Source of the DNA: a virus
Lineage: Duplodnaviria > Heunggongvirae > Uroviricota > Caudoviricetes
Virus record (IMG/VR): IMGVR_UViG_3300029935_000001
Location: 201,867 to 265,866 of that record
Direction: 5' to 3' (one strand)
Length of the DNA stretch: 64,000 bases
Positions within the stretch are counted from its first letter, which is position 1. Each line of letters begins with the position of its first letter. Under the pieces are notes generated by a model, which searched no databases, was not told the DNA's origin, and saw only the letters and a program-made list of their open reading frames with translations. The position numbers were made by a program, and so were the translations under genes. This document shows positions 4,014 through 36,482 of this stretch, piece by piece.

Positions 4014-5256
4014 GAAAATAATGGATTTTATCAACGTTGCTGCATTAAACGAATCAGTCTCGCAAACCGTTACGCAAATGGTTGCCGAGCTGCTTTCGCA
4101 CGAAAACGTTCTAGCCGAGCTTAATCGCACCGCAGCCGATGTATTAAGGGCGCAAATCACCGAACAAGTAATGCAACGAGACTTCCAGCCTCTTGTTCGG
4201 GCTGCTATCGAAAAATTTGTTAGTGAAAATACGTTGCCAACTATCGGTAACATTATCGTCGAGCATCACGGGTCAGCTCCAGTTGACTCGTTTATTGCCC
4301 TAGCAGTTGAACACGAAGTAACTCGCATTGTTGCTGCGCTAGCCCAATCTCCAGAGTGGAATGCACAGATACGTCGTTTATTGTTAAACGACGTAAACCA
4401 CGTAATCTCTACTTATATAGACCGAATCGACGTCAACAGTGCAATAGCGCAAGAAATACAAAAATACCTTGCTGCTAAGCACAGTGAATCGTTACCAAAG
4501 TTTGGTATTGTTGATAATACTACTAAACCTGTGATGTCGTTGTCAGACAATGGCGTTGACACCCAAAAACTTGTTTGTTCTGAACTTACCTGCGATACTA
4601 TCGAAGTGACGGACCTGCAAGTTAATGGGCAGCTTAAATTTGATCCTTCTGCACTCAAAGACGAGCTTACGTCGCAAATTGCCTGCCAATTAGTTGAGCA
4701 AGTTACGTCAGTTGCGATTGCGCAAACTAAAGAGATTGTATCTAGCCACCGGGTACAAGCGGATCAAGTATTTACAGGACCGGTTCCGTTACTAGCTGAC
4801 GGTAAACTAAGCCGGCTGGTTACTCACTCGTCACTAGAGTCCGTTGGCGAGCTCGAGTCGTTGACTGTATTAGGCAAAACGGAACTAAACGATACTGTTG
4901 CGGTCTTAAAGAGTCGGGTCGGTATTAACACCGCAATGCCTGATTCTGCGCTTACTGTGTGGGACGAAGAGACAGCGTTGTCATTTGGCAAACACTCTTC
5001 AAACGCGTGTTATATCGGCAGCAATCGAGGCAATAAACTAGTATTAGGGATCAACCGCAAAGGCGTTGTGGAAATTACAGACACTAAAGTTACTGTTCCT
5101 GCGTTGCAAATTAATAAAAATATGGTAGGGTTTAGTAACACAACGCCAGTGCATGCCGGCACCCGCGGAGACTGGTTATGGAACACTGAAGTTACTGACG
5201 CGTCGCCGTATGCGTGGGTGTGTCTTGGCGGTTCTCGATGGAAGGCGCTAAAATGA
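4003..5256 (+). CDS. hypothetical protein, possibly fibre-like structural (Ser/Thr/Gly/Val-rich C-terminus)
   Basis: 417-aa ORF; start overlaps the previous gene; composition resembles phage fibre/receptor-binding proteins (weak). Confidence 0.45.
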   Translation: MFFRKIMDFINVAALNESVSQTVTQMVAELLSHENVLAELNRTAADVLRAQITEQVMQRDFQPLVRAAIEKFVSENTLPTIGNIIVEHHGSAPVDSFIALAVEHEVTRIVAALAQSPEWNAQIRRLLLNDVNHVISTYIDRIDVNSAIAQEIQKYLAAKHSESLPKFGIVDNTTKPVMSLSDNGVDTQKLVCSELTCDTIEVTDLQVNGQLKFDPSALKDELTSQIACQLVEQVTSVAIAQTKEIVSSHRVQADQVFTGPVPLLADGKLSRLVTHSSLESVGELESLTVLGKTELNDTVAVLKSRVGINTAMPDSALTVWDEETALSFGKHSSNACYIGSNRGNKLVLGINRKGVVEITDTKVTVPALQINKNMVGFSNTTPVHAGTRGDWLWNTEVTDASPYAWVCLGGSRWKALK

Positions 5257-5747
5257 GGATAGCTTGGATTGTAGGGCAAAGCGATCAGAATTACGATGTT
5301 GCTGCCCTCAAGGCAATCGGTCCTCTCTGGGGCACTTGGCAGTCGTGGCGGAAGTTTAAAACTGATAACGTAGTAGTAACAGACTTTAGCAAAGCAGTTG
5401 ACTTAACTGGCCGTGCCTTTCATAGTGTTTGTAACTTGTATCTCCCCGAAGACTTGTATCAAGCTGCTCAACGGCCAGCTGGCGTGCGCTTGTTTGCGCG
5501 TCCTGCAGGCGCTGGCGATTTAGCTGCATTAATGGGAGTAGTAGCAACTGTGGCCGACATTGTTCTTATTATTGGGTTGAGGCCGGGCTCACCTAACGAA
5601 GAACGTGAAGTGAAGTCAATTGTGCTAGCACACCCTAATATTCAATGGGTGAGCCTCGATGCCACTGAACCTTTTTTTGGTGGCAATGCTCCGCCAAACT
5701 GCCTAGTAGACACCACTGCTAATGTCTTGGCGATGCTTTCTGGTTGA
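5253..5747 (+). CDS. hypothetical protein
   Basis: The ATG overlaps the upstream stop (aaATGa); the gene's stop TGA lies inside the -35 TTGACT of the next promoter. Confidence 0.45.
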   Translation: MRIAWIVGQSDQNYDVAALKAIGPLWGTWQSWRKFKTDNVVVTDFSKAVDLTGRAFHSVCNLYLPEDLYQAAQRPAGVRLFARPAGAGDLAALMGVVATVADIVLIIGLRPGSPNEEREVKSIVLAHPNIQWVSLDATEPFFGGNAPPNCLVDTTANVLAMLSG

Positions 5748-5803
5748 CTAGCTGCTGCTACGGCGTTATAATAGCTACATACATTACTACTGCGGAGAAC
5801 ACA
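5744..5803 (+). promoter_or_regulatory. sigma70-type promoter (TTGACT-17-TATAAT) plus conserved leader variant
   Basis: -35 at 5744-5749, -10 at 5767-5772; leader agctacatacattactactgcggagaacacaATG. Confidence 0.6.
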
Positions 5804-6202
5804 ATGACTGCGCTCAACGAAACCGATCTTGTCACAGTTGTCGACCAAAGCTTGGGTTTCTTGCAGGCCCTTGCTGAGGTGTATGGCTCCGAGCGCGCAC
5901 AAGAAGCGTGGGCTAAGATAAGCGAGGCCCTCGGGCACGACGTTAGAGACGCAGTGTTCTTAGCTATGCTCGCCGGCGATAACGGTTCGGCTCGTGTGAC
6001 CTTCAAAATCACAAACCAAATCGTTAGCCATCGAGTGGCTGCTATTCGAGCGATTCGCGAGGCTGCATCGCTGGGCCTTAAAGAGGCCAAAGATCTTACG
6101 GATGCGGCAATGATGCGCGCCACTGTTGTGACGTGTAAAAATCGCCAATCAGCAAAAGGCCTGCGGCAAGCGTTGCGAGATCTTGGCATGGAGGCACAGT
6201 GA
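5804..6202 (+). CDS. protein with a ribosomal protein bL12 (L7/L12) C-terminal-domain-like region
   Basis: The C-terminal 70 aa read RVTFKITNQIVSHRVAAIRAIREAASLGLKEAKDL..., closely matching the bL12 CTD (EFDVIL...KIAVIKAVRxxTGLGLKEAKDL...); the N-terminal half is unrelated. Confidence 0.55.
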   Translation: MTALNETDLVTVVDQSLGFLQALAEVYGSERAQEAWAKISEALGHDVRDAVFLAMLAGDNGSARVTFKITNQIVSHRVAAIRAIREAASLGLKEAKDLTDAAMMRATVVTCKNRQSAKGLRQALRDLGMEAQ

Positions 6203-7120: not shown

Positions 7121-7179
7121 TTGACAGCACCTGCTCAGATCCGTATAATACGAACATAGACAACGCGCCGGAGAGCAAA
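7121..7179 (+). promoter_or_regulatory. sigma70-type promoter TTGACA-17-TATAAT
   Basis: -35 at 7121-7126, -10 at 7144-7149; leader cgccggagagcaaaATG. Confidence 0.6.
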
Positions 7180-7362
7180 ATGGGTTATCGAGTGTTTGAA
7201 GCCAACGACGGGTTCGGCGCGCGCAAAGGCCTCGAAGGCCCGTTCCGTTACCCCAGCGGTCGCGTTGTATATTACGATCCCAAAGAGGGCAAGTATTATG
7301 ACCCCAAAACGGACTGGTACTTAAGCCATCAAGAGGCGTTAGAACTTTATGCATTAACCTGA
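7180..7362 (+). CDS. hypothetical small protein
   Basis: Promoter-driven 60-aa ORF. Confidence 0.45.
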
Positions 7363-7928
7363 GCACGTTGAGCTGCTCGATACGCGAGCATCTTCTCGCG
7401 TATCTTTTGCTTATGTTCTTCGGTTTGTTTGTGCCCTTTCTTTTTAGGCTTGCCAAGATGCGCTGCTGCTATCTTAGCTTTAGTCTCTTCAGAATGTTTA
7501 TCAGGAGAACCATCTAGACGAGCAGGTTTTTTGCGTCCTTTGAACTTTTCGCTCATCTTCTGTTTCCATTCGTCACTATGTTCAATTTTCTGTTTAGCTC
7601 GTGCAGCACGAATCTTTGCCTTAGCTTCTTCTGTATGGGTTCTACCAAACATATAGTTGAGCTCTCCAGGGAATGATCCCCCATCCCCGCCGTCGGTTTT
7701 GTTATAGAGAATACCTGTACCAATATCCTTTCTGCCATACCAACGGATATACCTGCGCTCAAGAGCCAATGCACCAACTTCGGTTAATCCTGTCTCAAGA
7801 AACACTATTCTCGAACGATCGCGAGGAACAGTAACATTGTGTCGGCCAAACACGCGGTTGCCTTGGCCTTTTCCGATATAGTACGGGGTTCCGTCTTTAC
7901 GGAGATAAGCATATGTATAGTAGTTCAT
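7347..7928 (-). CDS. GIY-YIG homing endonuclease with NUMOD3 DNA-binding repeats
   Basis: N-terminal [20 protein letters not shown]...R...E (GIY-YIG); three NUMOD3-like repeats ([15 protein letters not shown]; [15 protein letters not shown]; [15 protein letters not shown]); minus strand against the genome polarity. Confidence 0.8.
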
Positions 7929-8035
7929 ATTATTATTTATCCGCGCACTGATTTTTACCTCTCAGACGACGAGGTTCGCGCACTCCAGGATTCCATCTAC
8001 AATGTGCTGCGCACGTAAAAAGATTTAGATTTAGG

Positions 8036-8097
8036 TTGCCCAGAGCAGCAGAATACGGTATAATAGCTACATACAGTAACGCAACGGAGCATACAAA
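8036..8097 (+). promoter_or_regulatory. conserved promoter-leader cassette (TTGCCC-17-TATAAT-AGCTACATACAGTAACGCAACGGAGCAtacaaa)
   Basis: Near-identical to more than 13 other copies. Confidence 0.7.
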
Positions 8098-8271
8098 ATG
8101 TTTGAAACTTTCCTCACTATTCTTGCTGTGCTGGTGTTCCTGTTCTGCACGCTTGTGCTGCTTGCGGTAGGCCGCAAGAACCCGTCCAAGATTGATGGGG
8201 CTAAAGTCCTGAAACTTTTGCTGGTGTGGGCTGTCTCTGGTGCGTGGTTGGTTGCTGCTGTTATTTCCTAA
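8098..8271 (+). CDS. small hydrophobic membrane protein (57 aa)
   Basis: ATG sits directly at the end of the conserved leader; two predicted TM helices; below the ORF-track length cut-off. Confidence 0.5.
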   Translation: MFETFLTILAVLVFLFCTLVLLAVGRKNPSKIDGAKVLKLLLVWAVSGAWLVAAVIS

Positions 8272-8283
8272 CTGTCCAAAAAG

Positions 8284-8478
8284 GTGAATGCTATGACTAT
8301 CTCCCAAGAGCGCATGGTTCAAATGATTCGCATGGACGTTCGTGAATGCTACTCCGAGCAAGGTCGTGCAGGCACTGCAACCGAGTACGGAGTTGAAGCG
8401 TTTGTTGGCGCGAGCGAATCGCTTGAACAGTTTGTCGATCGTTGTGTGGCCGCCGAGCTCAACCGCTGCTACGCCTGA
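8284..8478 (+). CDS. hypothetical protein
   Basis: SD AAAAAGGTGA upstream of the ATG. Confidence 0.45.
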   Translation: MNAMTISQERMVQMIRMDVRECYSEQGRAGTATEYGVEAFVGASESLEQFVDRCVAAELNRCYA

Positions 8479-8479
8479 C

Positions 8480-8800
8480 ATGGACTACCGAGACTCGCCA
8501 ACAAAAACTCAAATCGGACTGGTAGTTGAGTGTGTAGGGCCCGATTCGAGCAAGACCTCGGTCATTTATTCCGTTGCTGGATTAGGTGTAATTTGTCCCG
8601 ACTTGCTGCTAACTTGCGGGTCCGCTTTTCGAATGTCAGTGTATCTCAGCGCACTGATTGACGGCACCGATCGATTGGCCGATGCGTTTGGACGCTACGC
8701 TATTAGCGTTTGGATTTCTGGGGAACAATACTACGACGCCGAGTCAATCGCAGCCGCTCTTGTTGCTGCTCACTATAACGCACAAAATAAGACTATATGA
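8480..8800 (+). CDS. hypothetical protein
   Basis: ATG overlaps the upstream stop (tgacATGg); in frame with track ORF 8342..8800. Confidence 0.4.
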   Translation: MDYRDSPTKTQIGLVVECVGPDSSKTSVIYSVAGLGVICPDLLLTCGSAFRMSVYLSALIDGTDRLADAFGRYAISVWISGEQYYDAESIAAALVAAHYNAQNKTI

Positions 8801-9246
8801 AATACACAATCGAACAAGCTGCTCAGATCCTCAACCTTGCTGGGCCTCGGCATGTGTCGGGATATGCTTGGCGCAAAACATTCCTTAATCACGTCACTTT
8901 GACCGAGGCACAGTGGCTGGCTACAAATCGCTGGCGCCGCGACATTCCGCAGCTTCAGAACGAAACTACTTACGATCGGTGTGTCGATGCTTGTGTGTGT
9001 GCACAATCGGGTAAGATTATCGTGACGGTTACTATCTACAACGGCGACCTGGTAGACGGGTTCCCCACTGATGCGCGTTGCAAGTTCGCCGGCGAGTTGA
9101 CCGAAATGTGCCCTGAGGTTGCAACGGTTGTAGAACAGGCGTTTGGGACACTGGTCGAAGCGGAAGTAGAACGACGCGAGAAAGCCCGTATCGACCGGCT
9201 GCGCGCAGAGGTCGAAGCACAGTTTTCCAGAACTTTCAACCTCTAA
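8797..9246 (+). CDS. hypothetical protein
   Basis: ATGA start/stop overlap with the previous gene. Confidence 0.45.
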   Translation: MKYTIEQAAQILNLAGPRHVSGYAWRKTFLNHVTLTEAQWLATNRWRRDIPQLQNETTYDRCVDACVCAQSGKIIVTVTIYNGDLVDGFPTDARCKFAGELTEMCPEVATVVEQAFGTLVEAEVERREKARIDRLRAEVEAQFSRTFNL

Positions 9247-9249
9247 CGG

Positions 9250-9306
9250 TTGACTTAAAACTCCCAAGTAGTTATAATAAGTTATTAAACAAATAAAGAG
9301 GCAAAT
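9250..9306 (+). promoter_or_regulatory. sigma70 promoter TTGACT-17-TATAAT with SD AAAGAGG (the original pnk promoter)
   Basis: -35 at 9250-9255, -10 at 9273-9278. Confidence 0.55.
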
Positions 9307-9339
9307 ATGCAAGCCATTATCACTGTTGGCGTTTCGTAA
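9307..9339 (+). pseudogene. displaced 5' remnant of pnk (MQAIITVGVS-stop)
   Basis: A 10-codon ORF behind a strong SD whose peptide and DNA (..GGCGTTTCG) match the start of the intact pnk gene (MGKAVICVGVSASGKS); it diverges exactly where the endonuclease cassette begins. Confidence 0.6.
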
Positions 9340-9395
9340 GGTAACTATTGCTGTCTCTGCCTAAAAGTGCATAAATAAAGCGTCAGGAGAGAATA

Positions 9396-10388
9396 GTGAT
9401 ACCAACAAGAGCGCAATACTTTTTTACTGAGCGTGGATTTTTTAGAAAAAACGTCCTCAAAGAAGAAAAGTTCAGTCAACGCTATCCAGCTGTTTATGCA
9501 GAAATTAACAAAATTACTTCAACCTCGTTGCCGTGGCGAGAACGAGTGTATCTATATATACATGATGCACAAGAACCCCCACTCTGCCACTGCGGATGCG
9601 GAGAGCGGTGTGCTTTTTCGAACTGCCAAGACTCGAGTCGATTTACATATTTAAAGTTTTATTCAACTAAGTGCAAAGCTCGTGCTTATGGCGGTGTTGG
9701 AAATCCGTTTTTTGGTAAAAATCACTCAGATGAGACAAAAGAAGCAATCAGAGTTAAAAAGCAGGGCAAAACATATTCGCCCGAAGTAAACGCTAAAAAA
9801 GTGCGTCGCGGTGCTCAAAACGGAATGTACCAGCGTTGTAACTATGACGTTTGGCTCGAAAAATACGGCCCAGAAATTGCTTTACAAAAGCAGTTAGCAG
9901 CAAACGCTAAAAAAGTGCGTCGCGGTGCTCAAAACGGAATGTATGGTAAGTCGCCATCAAAAAAAGCTGGCAATTCTGTTAAGTGTTGGTACAAAGGTTA
10001 CTTTTGCCGCAGTTTATCCGAGCTAAGTTTTATAATAAACTACTGCGAGCGATTTAGGTTATTGTTTGAAACTGCCGAAACTACAAAATACAAAGTTGTT
10101 ATAGGTCCTAATAAAACGTACAGACCGGATTTTTTAGTAAACAACAAATTTATTGTTGAGATCAAACCAAAAGGGCTACAGAAGGCCCATGCTGACAAGT
10201 TTAGCATAGCCAAAGCAGAGTTTCTAAAGCAAGGGCTAACGTTTAAAGTCATTGACCCTATTAAAAAACTAAGTTATAATGACATTTTTGCGCTAATGCA
10301 AACGGGTGCCGTAGAAATAATGGCTGCTACGCATAGCAAAACTTATAACAACTTTATGAAAAGGTATCAAAAATGGGCAAAGCGGTAA
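9396..10388 (+). CDS. free-standing homing endonuclease (Zn-finger + NUMOD3 repeats + C-terminal PD-(D/E)xK-like nuclease)
   Basis: GTG start after AGGAGAG; CHCGCG zinc motif; NUMOD3-like GKNHSDETKEAIRVKKQGK; duplicated AKKVRRGAQNGMY module; C-terminal RPDF...VEIKPK motif; inserted between the pnk remnant and the intact pnk. Confidence 0.7.
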   Translation: MIPTRAQYFFTERGFFRKNVLKEEKFSQRYPAVYAEINKITSTSLPWRERVYLYIHDAQEPPLCHCGCGERCAFSNCQDSSRFTYLKFYSTKCKARAYGGVGNPFFGKNHSDETKEAIRVKKQGKTYSPEVNAKKVRRGAQNGMYQRCNYDVWLEKYGPEIALQKQLAANAKKVRRGAQNGMYGKSPSKKAGNSVKCWYKGYFCRSLSELSFIINYCERFRLLFETAETTKYKVVIGPNKTYRPDFLVNNKFIVEIKPKGLQKAHADKFSIAKAEFLKQGLTFKVIDPIKKLSYNDIFALMQTGAVEIMAATHSKTYNNFMKRYQKWAKR

Positions 10389-11281
10389 TCTGTGTCGGCG
10401 TTTCGGCTTCTGGAAAAAGCACCTGGGCGCGCAATTTCATCCACGACCGTACTACGAATGCCGGCGAGCAGTGGGTTGACATCAATCGCGACTGGGAACG
10501 GCGCTGTATTTTGGTCGAAAAGTCGCAAGGTCAGATTGACCGGCTCGTTTGGCGCCACTGGAAGTGGAAGTGGGAGGACGAAGTCACCCAACGTTGTGAA
10601 GCTCGTCTTGCCGAAGCGGCTGCTGCCCAGAAAAGTGTTGTGATCTCGGATACCAACCTGAATCGAGACCGCCGGACGGCTTTGAAGCACAAGCTCGAAG
10701 CACTTGGGTACGATGTTGAATACAAGTTTTTCTCGGTTACGTTCGAGGAAGCGTGCCGGCGCGATGCTGAACGCGAAAACGGTGTTGGTTACTCGGTGAT
10801 CGCTAAGCAGTTTGAGCAGTGGAATGCCGAGTTTCATGCTAAGCACATCCTGCAAGCTGGTTTGCCTGAATGCGTGATCGTTGACATCGACGGCACCATG
10901 GCTCACATGAAGGGGCGCGGCCCGTTTGATTGGGCGCGAGTGGGCGAAGATACAGTCGACCCGGTTGTGGATCGAATGGTCCAAGCCCTTCAAGACCAAG
11001 GATTTAAGATCGTTTTCCTGTCGGGGCGCGATGGCTGCTGCGAAGCTGAAACTCGCGAATGGCTCCGCAACAAGACCAGCGTCGGCGAGTTCGAGCTGTT
11101 TATGCGCACGGCAGGCGATTCGCGACGCGACGACATTGTCAAGCAAGAATTGCTTGCTGAGCATGTCGAAGGGCGTTACAATGTTTTTTGCGTGTTCGAC
11201 GATCGCCCCCAAATGATTCGCAAGTGGCATGCTATGGGTCTCAAGGTAATGGCTGTTAGCAACCCGTACCTCGAGTTTTAA
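10373..11281 (+). CDS. pnk: polynucleotide 5'-kinase/3'-phosphatase (T4 Pnk-like)
   Basis: N-terminal P-loop GVSASGKST; C-terminal HAD phosphatase motif VIVDIDGTM (DxDGT) plus downstream Asp residues; same domain order as T4 PseT. Confidence 0.8.
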   Translation: MGKAVICVGVSASGKSTWARNFIHDRTTNAGEQWVDINRDWERRCILVEKSQGQIDRLVWRHWKWKWEDEVTQRCEARLAEAAAAQKSVVISDTNLNRDRRTALKHKLEALGYDVEYKFFSVTFEEACRRDAERENGVGYSVIAKQFEQWNAEFHAKHILQAGLPECVIVDIDGTMAHMKGRGPFDWARVGEDTVDPVVDRMVQALQDQGFKIVFLSGRDGCCEAETREWLRNKTSVGEFELFMRTAGDSRRDDIVKQELLAEHVEGRYNVFCVFDDRPQMIRKWHAMGLKVMAVSNPYLEF

Positions 11282-13984: not shown

Positions 13985-15082
13985 ATGCGTAAGCTTGCTA
14001 CCATTCGTAAGATCGCCGAGATCAAGCCCATCGAGGGCGCCGACGCCATTGAACATTACCGCGTACTTGGGTGGTGGGTCGTTGACAAAAAAGGTGCCCA
14101 TCAAGTCGGCGACCTTGTCATTTACCTCGAGATCGATTCCTGGGCGCCCAATGAGCTGGCTCCGTTCCTGAGCAAGGGCAAAGAGCCGCGCGAATACAAC
14201 GGCGTTAAGGGCGAGCGCCTCAAAACTGTTAAGCTTCGCGGCGCTATCTCGCAAGGGCTGCTGCTGCCCGTTAAAACCGGAATCGGCGGCTACCCGTTTG
14301 TTGAGGGCTCCGCCGGCGAGCACACTGTTGTTCACGAAGGCGACGATGTCTCCGAACTGCTCGGCATTCAAAAATACGAGCCGCCCGTTCCGGCTCAGCT
14401 GCGCGGCAAGATTGCCGGCACGTTCCCGAGCTGGCTGCGAAAAACTGACCAGGAACGGATCCAATCTTGTTTTGCGGAGATTGAGCCTCTGCTCAGCGGC
14501 CTTTGGGTGATTGAAGAAAAGCTCGATGGGTCGTCTATGACTGTTGGCTACCGCAAGGGTGATTTTATCCTCGACAAGGATGGCCAGCCCATCCCTGAAG
14601 AAACTGTGGTTTGCTCGCGTAATCTGTCGCTCAAGCTCGACGATGACGCTAACTCGTTTGTGCGTGTGGCCCGAGAAACTGGCGTGCTTGACGCGCTGAA
14701 GGCGTATGGCCGTAACCTGGGCATTTCAGGCGAGCTGTGCGGCGAGGGCATCCAGGGTAACAAGTATAACCTCAAGGGCCAGCGCTGGTTTGTTTTCGAC
14801 ATTCTCGACGTTGATCGGGCCGAGTACGTTAGTTACGAAGAGCGCCAGCTGATCATCAATGATCTCGTTGCGCTCGGCGCCCAACTTGATCAAACTCCAC
14901 TGATTGCTGAGGGCGTTACGCTTGAGGGCATGACCGTCGACGGCTTGCTCCGAGCTGCTGAAGCGAAGAGTGCGCTGAATATTCAAGCCGAGCGTGAAGG
15001 ACTGGTATATAAGAGTGTTGAGCGGCCTGATGTGTCGTTCAAGGCTATTAGCAATCGGTGGTTGCTTAAAACTGGGGAATAA
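13985..15082 (+). CDS. ATP-dependent RNA ligase with N-terminal OB/tRNA-binding-like domain (Rnl5/DraRnl-like)
   Basis: N-terminal Myf/EMAP-like OB segment (RKIAEIKPIEGADAIEHYRVLGWWVV); nucleotidyltransferase motif I KLDGSS, motif IV EGLVYK, motif V FKAIS. Confidence 0.75.
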   Translation: MRKLATIRKIAEIKPIEGADAIEHYRVLGWWVVDKKGAHQVGDLVIYLEIDSWAPNELAPFLSKGKEPREYNGVKGERLKTVKLRGAISQGLLLPVKTGIGGYPFVEGSAGEHTVVHEGDDVSELLGIQKYEPPVPAQLRGKIAGTFPSWLRKTDQERIQSCFAEIEPLLSGLWVIEEKLDGSSMTVGYRKGDFILDKDGQPIPEETVVCSRNLSLKLDDDANSFVRVARETGVLDALKAYGRNLGISGELCGEGIQGNKYNLKGQRWFVFDILDVDRAEYVSYEERQLIINDLVALGAQLDQTPLIAEGVTLEGMTVDGLLRAAEAKSALNIQAEREGLVYKSVERPDVSFKAISNRWLLKTGE

Positions 15083-36086: not shown

Positions 36087-36482
36087 ATGAGCAGTAAGAC
36101 AGAAATGCGCGAATTCGCGGATGGCGGCCGGATGTGGCTACTTAATAGCCAACCACACCGCACGGACGGACCTGCTGTTATTCAAGCAGATGGAACCCAA
36201 AAGTGGTTCAGGAATGGCCGACTACATCGCGAAGACGGACCTGCTTTTATTCATGCAGATGGAACCCAAAAGTGGTATCGCAACGGCGATCTACATCGCG
36301 AAGATGGACCTGCTGTTACTTGGATTGATGGAACACAAGCCTGGTATCGAAATAGCCAACTACATCGCGCGGATGGACCTGCATATATTGATGCAAACGG
36401 CACCCAAATGTGGTACCTCAATGGCAAACGAGTAGATCCCATCACTCACTTAGTGCTGCGTTACGAGCAAGAAACAGGTTGA
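36087..36482 (+). CDS. MORN-variant repeat protein, paralog 4 (5 repeats)
   Basis: Same family; tail VDPITHLVLRYEQETG. Confidence 0.65.
   Translation: MSSKTEMREFADGGRMWLLNSQPHRTDGPAVIQADGTQKWFRNGRLHREDGPAFIHADGTQKWYRNGDLHREDGPAVTWIDGTQAWYRNSQLHRADGPAYIDANGTQMWYLNGKRVDPITHLVLRYEQETG

Follow-up and report, generated by a model that had tools for sequence, protein, structure and literature searches.

What is a consensus promoter doing in front of an open reading frame (ORF) of only 10 codons? The question is raised by one locus in a 64,000-nucleotide (nt) stretch of DNA, hereafter the window, which spans positions 201,867 to 265,866 of the Caudoviricetes record IMGVR_UViG_3300029935_000001 in IMG/VR. 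Here, an early-type promoter (TTGACT-N17-TATAAT, 9250-9278; plus strand, as all window features unless noted) and a Shine-Dalgarno (SD) sequence (AAAGAGG, 9295-9301) precede the ORF ATGCAAGCCATTATCACTGTTGGCGTTTCG-TAA (9307-9339), which translates as MQAIITVGVS* and matches the start of the gene pnk, located about 1 kb downstream (10373-11281). Between them lies a GTG-initiated ORF of 330 amino acids that resembles homing endonucleases (9396-10388). The answer to which we assign a probability of roughly 85% is that the segment 9337-10405 is a discrete, horizontally mobile homing-endonuclease cassette lodged in pnk and tolerated through the start signals that it carries. For annotators, the locus is a warning that a strong promoter and SD sequence in front of a 10-codon ORF can belong to the stump of a gene.

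The promoter and SD sequence, the short ORF matching the pnk start, the GTG-initiated ORF and the overlap of its 3' end with pnk had all been recorded in a preliminary description of the window, and their coordinates and sequences were confirmed. The two copies of the pnk 5' end differ in length (10 versus 11 codons), match at 20 of the 27 nt after the ATG, with the other 7 differing, and match at 11 of the last 12 nt. The preliminary description had the identity ending exactly where the endonuclease ORF begins, which needs correction: identity ends at 9336, an in-frame TAA (9337-9339) comes next, and 59 nt separate the end of identity from the start of the endonuclease ORF at 9396. The last 12 nt of the two copies, which encode the Walker A residues V-G-V-S, form a direct repeat with the left copy GTTGGCGTTTCG at 9325-9336 and the right copy GTCGGCGTTTCG at 10394-10405; the pattern GTYGGCGTTTCG is found in the window only at these two positions (0.01 occurrences expected). 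The downstream copy, recoded pnk codons 1-11 (10373-10405, MGKAVICVGVS), opens a chimeric but intact pnk of 302 amino acids (start MGKAVICVGVSASGKST). Its product has the T4-type arrangement of an N-terminal P-loop kinase and a C-terminal HAD phosphatase (Pfam matches AAA_33, 2e-16, and HAD_PNKP, 8.9e-45), with an intact Walker A motif, GVSASGKS. The G+C content is 36-44% over approximately 9200-10400, compared with 52-56% in the flanks.

Insert-free alleles and the extent of the cassette

The locus was compared with three Logan contigs (L028, L029 and L030), an independent Logan assembly (L023) and an independent ENA assembly of a different phage (L031). The first three are 97.3-98.6% identical to the window at the nucleotide level over about 10 kb, and in all of them an identical promoter and SD sequence directly join an uninterrupted pnk (...ACTGTCGGCGTTTCG|GCTTCGGGAAAAAG...), the very arrangement that the preliminary description had proposed to look for in relatives lacking the insert. 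The window equals their sequence plus exactly 1069 nt (9337-10405), the ends being ambiguous within the 12-nt direct repeat, and the insertion splits the Walker A (P-loop) codons of pnk, separating S10 from A11. Positions 9307-9336 reproduce the first 30 nt of the insert-free pnk except for one synonymous single-nucleotide polymorphism (SNP, 9327). Because the insert-free contigs run the same promoter and SD sequence into an intact gene, the 10-codon ORF of the window is the original pnk 5' end, now a displaced native remnant. The insert-free protein (P0015), which was found on all three contigs in a search with the window Pnk, has 301 amino acids and starts with MQAIITVGVSASGKST, and the rest of it is identical to the window protein.

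The cassette is therefore polymorphic at a single precise site, being present in the window and L023 and absent from L028, L029 and L030. Among the ten closest homologues of Pnk, the native-type N-terminus M[QRFK]AI[IV]TVGVS is found in eight, and the MGKAVIC start only in the two cassette-bearing genomes. Alleles before and after insertion at about 98% identity, together with the second host lineage described below, define the mobile unit to the base. The window and L028 differ by seven SNPs between -10 and +183 of the insertion point, namely the one at 9327 and a cluster of six at 10411-10588, with no differences in 769 nt to the left and none in 791 nt to the right of them. A co-conversion tract would leave such a pattern.

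Apart from the window, a full-length cassette was found only in L031, at the same codon of pnk. The L031 Pnk (P0022) is only 59.7% identical to that of the window, yet it starts with the same MGKAVICVGVS, and the entire architecture recurs: a promoter of its own, its own 10-codon remnant ATGCAGGCCATCATTACTGTAGGAGTTTCG, the TAA, a cassette of 1070 nt with a 330-codon endonuclease ORF, and ATGGGCAAAGCGGTAATCTGCGTCGGGGTGTCG joined to its own pnk. At the nucleotide level, the two genomes share 49% identity ahead of the remnant and 83% within it; the spacer reaches 85%, the endonuclease gene 90.6% and the recoded 5' copy 90.9%, and successive segments of the pnk body have 67%, 65% and 59%. Since identity drops to 67% directly past 10405, the right edge of the shared unit is sharp at 10405|10406. 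Thirty of the 33 nt of recoded codons 1-11 are the same and the three differences are all synonymous, as are the five differences between the two remnants, which leave the peptide unchanged. In L031, the endonuclease gene and the recoded 5' copy both have about 90% identity, against about 65% for the pnk body; the 5' copy therefore moves together with the endonuclease, in agreement with the preliminary description. The case that it had named as contrary evidence, an endonuclease without the 10-codon fragment, was not found, L031 having both.

An insert-free relative of L031 (L035) is 80-96% identical to it up to the remnant (90-96% just upstream of it) and 54-70% identical across pnk and beyond (L031 3933 onward). 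Because identity falls at the remnant, the cassette marks the boundary between conserved and exchanged DNA, and judging from this profile the whole pnk of L031 may have entered together with the cassette. The crossover of the window lies at the P-loop itself, and its pnk is accordingly a chimera. The locus illustrates how endonuclease cassettes give rise to chimeric genes and come to delimit recombination in large phages. On a further contig of 1076 bp (L024), an endonuclease 52% identical to that of the window overlaps with its 3' end a pnk start, MAKKAFITIGVSASGKS.

The endonuclease and the signals carried with it

The cassette comprises a stop codon, translation signals for the endonuclease, a promoter, an SD sequence, an ATG and 11 pnk codons. 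The endonuclease ORF starts with GTG in the window and with ATG in L031, and is preceded by the SD sequence AGGAGAGA (9385-9392), which is kept in L031 and L024; at its other end it overlaps the pnk start by 16 nt. The protein contains a NUMOD3 DNA-binding motif at residues 100-119 (9693-9752; Pfam PF07460, E 7e-6), two more NGMY-type repeats behind it and a C-terminal PD-(D/E)xK nuclease domain (residues ~195-330; 9978-10385). Residues 213-286 match Tn7_TnsA-like_N (PF08722) with an E-value of 3e-5 and 24.8 bits, just below the 26.5-bit Pfam cut-off, and a precomputed PF08722 match exists for most relatives. A profile of the family matches T7 endonuclease I (9e-5) across E...YTPDF...VETK and the DNA-binding domain of I-TevI (1i3j; E 1.7e-3). 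The candidate catalytic residues E209, D245, E255 and K257, of which the last three correspond to the motif RPDF..VEIKPK, are invariant in 14 family members and align with the YTPDF..VETK motif of T7 endonuclease I. The C-terminal domain, modelled confidently by AlphaFold (predicted local distance difference test ~86-96), has a restriction-endonuclease-like core fold. The Pfam and profile matches and the invariant residues thus bear out the combination of NUMOD3 and a PD-(D/E)xK-like C-terminus that had been recognized in the preliminary description; the Zn-finger that it had also named is plausible as a Zn-ribbon-like region around a cysteine cluster at residues ~64-93, where relatives have CxxC...CxxC and model confidence is low. 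The window and L031 proteins are 91.8% identical, and with a synonymous divergence (dS) of 0.37 and a ratio of nonsynonymous to synonymous divergence (dN/dS) of 0.11, the endonuclease is under purifying selection.

The enzyme differs from the PD-(D/E)xK proteins to which it is related. The sequence and structural similarity and the intron-borne location that characterize homing endonucleases of the I-Ssp6803I type were not found for it; it has the superfamily in common with I-Ssp6803I and differs in architecture. The EDxHD motif on a Vsr-like core, as in I-Bth0305I, was not found in it either. Unlike TnsA of Tn7 and T7 endonuclease I, it has no TnsB or TnsC partner and no transposon or Holliday-junction-resolvase context; its nuclease domain is instead fused to I-TevI-like NUMOD3 modules and behaves as part of a site-specific selfish gene. 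If active, the endonuclease would offer a new scaffold, its site being long and probably asymmetric.

Within the ORF, a 40-nt exact direct repeat (9788-9827 and 9902-9941) duplicates NAKKVRRGAQNGM. The Logan assembly L023 breaks at this repeat. In L031 its two copies are not the same, suggesting that intragenic conversion took place recently in the window lineage.

Two promoters bracket the endonuclease. Sites of the form TTGAC-N18-TATAAT occur 20 times in the window, all on the plus strand, against an expectation of 0.01, and the set includes both the native promoter at 9250-9278 and a second site, TTGACC-N17-TATAAT at 10252-10280, which lies within the endonuclease coding sequence 93 nt 5' of the new pnk start. 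L031 retains both hexamers and the spacing of the latter, and so does the 52%-identical homologue on L024, in which 8 of the 17 spacer bases differ. The second site is predicted to act as a sigma70-type promoter for the new pnk start, which has a weak SD sequence of its own, AAAGG (10360-10364); transcription from the native promoter would now cover the remnant ORF and continue by read-through into the endonuclease and pnk. Other members of the set, most of which read TTGACC...GTATAAT, include those at 5744, 7121, 13282, 19819 and, as the last, 63247, and the sites at 36479 and 36848 are identical 29-mers. Upstream of the endonuclease, CUGUCUCUGCC could pair with its SD sequence and start codon in a putative hairpin (9346-9402), the loop of which, in the spacer of the cassette, holds CATAAATA (9370-9377). 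By analogy with described endonuclease loci, the hairpin may serve as translational control of the endonuclease; its core pairing is found again in L031, and the AUG in L024 is covered by another hairpin.

Origin of the cassette and alternative explanations

A history that would account for these observations starts from a free-standing endonuclease gene that overlapped an MGKAVIC-type pnk at its start, in an arrangement like that found next to another kinase gene on contig L032 (see below). The endonuclease would have cleaved a pnk without insert within the P-loop codons or close to them, the right end would have been repaired through pnk homology, and the left end would have been joined illegitimately at the break, creating the remnant|TAA junction once. 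From then on, the remnant and promoter would have provided the left homology and the pnk body the right homology, enabling precise homing of the unit into further phages of the clade through double-strand-break repair, the right crossover point varying from case to case. The predicted cut lies at or near the boundary of codons 10 and 11, where the preliminary description had placed it, with the qualification that NUMOD3 enzymes can cut away from their binding site, and alleles that already carry the cassette, with its recoded copy, would be immune to cleavage.

Several points weigh against this reading. The cleavage activity of the endonuclease is a prediction from its fold and residues. The right junction matches the insert-free allele for 13 nt leftward, and also rightward save for two SNPs in the first 15 nt, so that resistance of the carried copy would have to come from the SNPs at +6 and +15 or from bases located 14 bp or more upstream of the insertion point. 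The left homology available for precise homing between divergent phages would amount to only about 30-60 nt. The window bases at the flanking SNPs mostly mismatch L031, and L031 was dropped as a candidate donor because they are not consistently L031-like. At 9327, L028 has the C that the cassette copy has and the window remnant has T (GTC versus GTT), and the 12-nt direct repeat would permit precise loss of the cassette, so that between the window and L028 either gain or loss may have occurred. The hairpin is not significant, with z-scores of -0.7 and +0.2, and the reading of CATAAATA as a late promoter of T4 type was dropped: the window has 12 copies of ATAAATA where 6.4 are expected, only about a twofold excess, and one matched in 5 of 100 shuffles.

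Among the alternatives, the one that survives best, though it is unlikely, takes the 10-codon ORF to be kept as a functional leader peptide or upstream ORF regulating the endonuclease or pnk. The consensus promoter, strong SD sequence, ATG and in-frame stop are retained in both lineages, the L031 ORF with synonymous differences only, and a ribosome terminating on it would stand about 10 nt from the 5' arm of the hairpin. The insert-free alleles, however, prove that the ORF originated as the pnk 5' end, and its conservation may simply reflect recent insertion and a role as left homology. A leader function can in any case be compatible with a mobile cassette.

Slightly less probable still is a history in which the cassette-bearing state is ancestral and the endonuclease immobile, the two 5' copies stem from an old local duplication, and the insert-free alleles arose by precise deletion at the 12-nt repeat. 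The repeat does flank the insert, the L028 base at 9327 agrees with the cassette copy, and precise "hit-and-run" loss has been documented for MobA elements, so that occasional loss may well accompany gain. However, two phages with only 49-67% identity in pnk and flanks share a cassette, 5' copy included, at about 90%, and this requires recent horizontal transfer; the native-type N-terminus dominates the clade; and the two 5' copies differ in sequence and length as described above.

We regard it as very unlikely that the insertion was a one-off illegitimate event, spread by vertical descent and general recombination, with an endonuclease that does not target pnk and a P-loop position that is coincidental. 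It is true that cutting by the nuclease rests on inference, and that, phage genomes being mosaic, the sharp change of identity between L031 and L035 at the locus could be ordinary module exchange. Yet the 52%-identical homologue on L024 also overlaps a pnk start, the junction lies at the same codon in two lineages with SNPs clustered at the site, and, among eight contexts examined for more distant relatives, seven have the endonuclease gene abutting or interrupting another nucleoside triphosphatase (NTPase) gene at its P-loop-proximal 5' end. Finally, an assembly chimera of two phage variants is scarcely conceivable, even though the window comes from a metagenome assembly and the 40-nt repeat broke another one: the independent assembly L023 is 100% identical to the window over 5834 nt, from within the endonuclease through the whole of pnk and beyond, which rules out a chimera at the endonuclease-pnk junction, and the full architecture including the remnant-TAA junction was found again in the different phage L031.

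Known systems and the wider family

The mobile cassette proposed here shares elements with several described systems. In the fractured genes of phages, exemplified by mobE in nrdA of Aeh1, free-standing homing endonuclease genes break phage genes, and the model of Dassa et al. (2009, PMC2677866) already contains an element-supplied stop, Met, overlap and control signals. As in that model, the element of the window gives the upstream piece a stop (TAA, 9337-9339, the first 3 nt of the insert in the window and in L031) and the downstream piece a Met (ATG at 10373, inside the endonuclease ORF, whose 3' end overlaps the downstream start), and brings along control elements, among them a hairpin with a TATAAATA-like element upstream of the endonuclease. 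Relatives of the endonuclease, on L025 and L026, sit in a true split-intein fractured AAA ATPase. The window itself contains no intein sequence flanking the endonuclease, and no reassembly of a protein from two pieces is needed: the 10-amino-acid native fragment is redundant because the cassette carries a homologous replacement for the whole upstream piece. The window nuclease is, moreover, TnsA/T7-endonuclease-I-like rather than Vsr-like or GIY-YIG.

The MobA cassette of genes 39 and 60 in T4-type phages is an element of about 1.1 kb at the same site in several phage clades, with insert-free relatives 96-99% identical (bioRxiv 10.1101/2022.08.31.505936, and Bonocora et al. 2011 as cited there). 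According to that account, it too has an element-encoded target-homologous region (homR), which replaces host coding sequence around the cut site. The same source describes MobA as an HNH enzyme, in contrast to the PD-(D/E)xK enzyme of the window, and the insertion as deleting 55-75 nt and splitting the protein into two subunits with added tails, whereas in the window nothing is deleted and the protein stays whole. It further attributes the immunity of MobA to a 50-nt ribosomal bypass, whereas the window cassette needs no recoding signal.

In fungal mitochondria, mobile ORFs with a foreign gene terminus have been described for atp6 of Allomyces macrogynus and for atp6, atp9, cox2 and nad3 of Glomus (PMC3630166). 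They likewise combine an endonuclease ORF with a diverged end of the target gene, which is expressed while the native end is left as a duplicate. These are organellar elements with LAGLIDADG or GIY-YIG enzymes, however, and replace the 3' end and C-terminus; because the window element replaces the 5' end, it must also bring translation and transcription start signals.

Intronless homing endonuclease genes of T4 resemble the window element in spreading by double-strand-break repair with co-conversion of flanking markers, in their modular NUMOD regions and in adjoining the target gene. Two of them, SegF and SegG, are reportedly free-standing genes located next to their targets. The T4 Seg and Mob genes lie between genes and encode GIY-YIG or HNH enzymes, whereas the window element, with its PD-(D/E)xK enzyme, lies inside a coding sequence and duplicates part of it.

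What appears to be new is thus the combination of a portable 5' end with its own promoter, replacing the upstream piece of the gene, and a modular PD-(D/E)xK family for which the literature searched holds no published description of homing. That search returned nothing relevant on a TnsA-like/NUMOD3 homing endonuclease or on a phage endonuclease with partial duplication of its target, and a paper on F-CphI lists six recognized homing endonuclease families. Because the portable 5' end replaces the whole upstream piece, no splicing, subunit reassembly or recoding is needed. For a selfish endonuclease in the coding region of an essential motif, this is a further route beside self-splicing introns, inteins, reassembly of split subunits and ribosomal bypass.

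Among 1.84 billion cluster representatives (50% identity), the family profile has matches at E<=1e-30 to at least 776. This modular PD-(D/E)xK family is abundant and known mainly from metagenomes. None of 50,697 GenBank phage records contains a full-length member: neither window positions 8797-11281 (megablast) nor the endonuclease (tblastn) had a match there, and the relative P0009 had matches of NUMOD3 length only. A scan of IMG/VR with Pnk peptides returned no relative, and an exact look-up of the 330-amino-acid endonuclease protein returned no record.

Distant relatives were examined in eight contexts, seven of which lie at the P-loop-proximal 5' end of an NTPase gene, the exception being that on L004. 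Two relatives (P0004 and P0006, on L025 and L026) are located between split-intein halves that interrupt the Walker A motif GIPG|C of an AAA ATPase, with the intein sequence GIPG|CVLGDTKIRI... and a match to Intein_splicing. A third (P0012, L032) lies between phoH and an AAA_33 kinase gene, the start of which its 3' end overlaps; P0009 (L027) and the copies on L001-L003 face the 5' end of AAA_33 kinase genes; and P0010 (L033) faces a RecD-like helicase with its P-loop at residues 29-37. Between L001 and L003, a block of 92-100% identity extends from the kinase P-loop to the 3' end of the endonuclease gene, with divergent flanks. In a sample that is small and not independent, this distribution suggests a family specialized on Walker A coding DNA. 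It is conceivable, if somewhat short of even odds, that a large homing family built of Zn-ribbon, NUMOD3 and PD-(D/E)xK modules specializes in the Walker A DNA of unrelated NTPases, namely Pnk, small AAA_33 kinases, an AAA+ ATPase and a RecD-like helicase, with at least three modes of gene rescue: a portable 5' end with promoter, as in the window; residence in a split intein; and divergent placement with a replaced 5' end.

Several details of these loci were recorded. At the AAA ATPase loci (L025 2900-5128; L026 3900-6168), the N-intein is very short (CVLGDTKIRIKKVS...FVE*) and the endonuclease overlaps the downstream piece by 28 nt. A regular-expression search near the other viral loci found no intact P-loop motif, and it was through this failure that the interrupted P-loop in L001-L003 was noticed: in all three contigs, an in-frame TAACTA stands within the P-loop of the AAA_33 kinase (RGVP*LGSGKT; ~4674-4679, minus strand), at a position equivalent to the insertion site in pnk, and resembles the left end of the pnk cassette (TAAGGTAACTA). 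The part of the kinase downstream of it has a dN/dS of 0.11 between L001 and L003. Ribosomal bypass or frameshifting over TAACTA was considered and dropped, as a valid Walker A motif cannot be obtained from any matching pair of take-off and landing codons. In two flanking contexts (L001 5697-5720; L003 ~5700-5725, minus strand), a short ORF, MSG(I/M)LFC*, abuts the 3' end of the endonuclease gene on the kinase strand. It resembles the cassette-borne kinase start (..STGILFLIRGVP) and, by this resemblance, may be what is left of a native 5' end displaced as in the window.

Other mobile elements and genes were observed around pnk. An RNA ligase gene lies 2.7 kb downstream of it, intact in the window (13985-15082) and fractured in L031 (9016-10644), where a 37-amino-acid N-terminal piece is followed by a different NUMOD3 endonuclease ORF of 245 amino acids and by a C-terminal piece with an intein-splicing match. 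A second insertion relative to L028 occupies window positions 7167-8250, where L028 has 29 nt. Its minus strand bears an ORF that is GIY-YIG-like, has three NUMOD3 motifs (7347-7928) and is closely preceded by ATAAATA, its plus strand a small ORF for a hydrophobic product (8098-8271); directly to the right of the insertion, at 8258-8292, 11 differences from L028 cluster. The sequence from which the window is taken is, at 323 kb, of jumbo-phage size, and a ribosomal protein L7/L12-like gene (PF00542) is present at L028 2549-2947, corresponding to about 5800-6200 of the window, as well as in L031.

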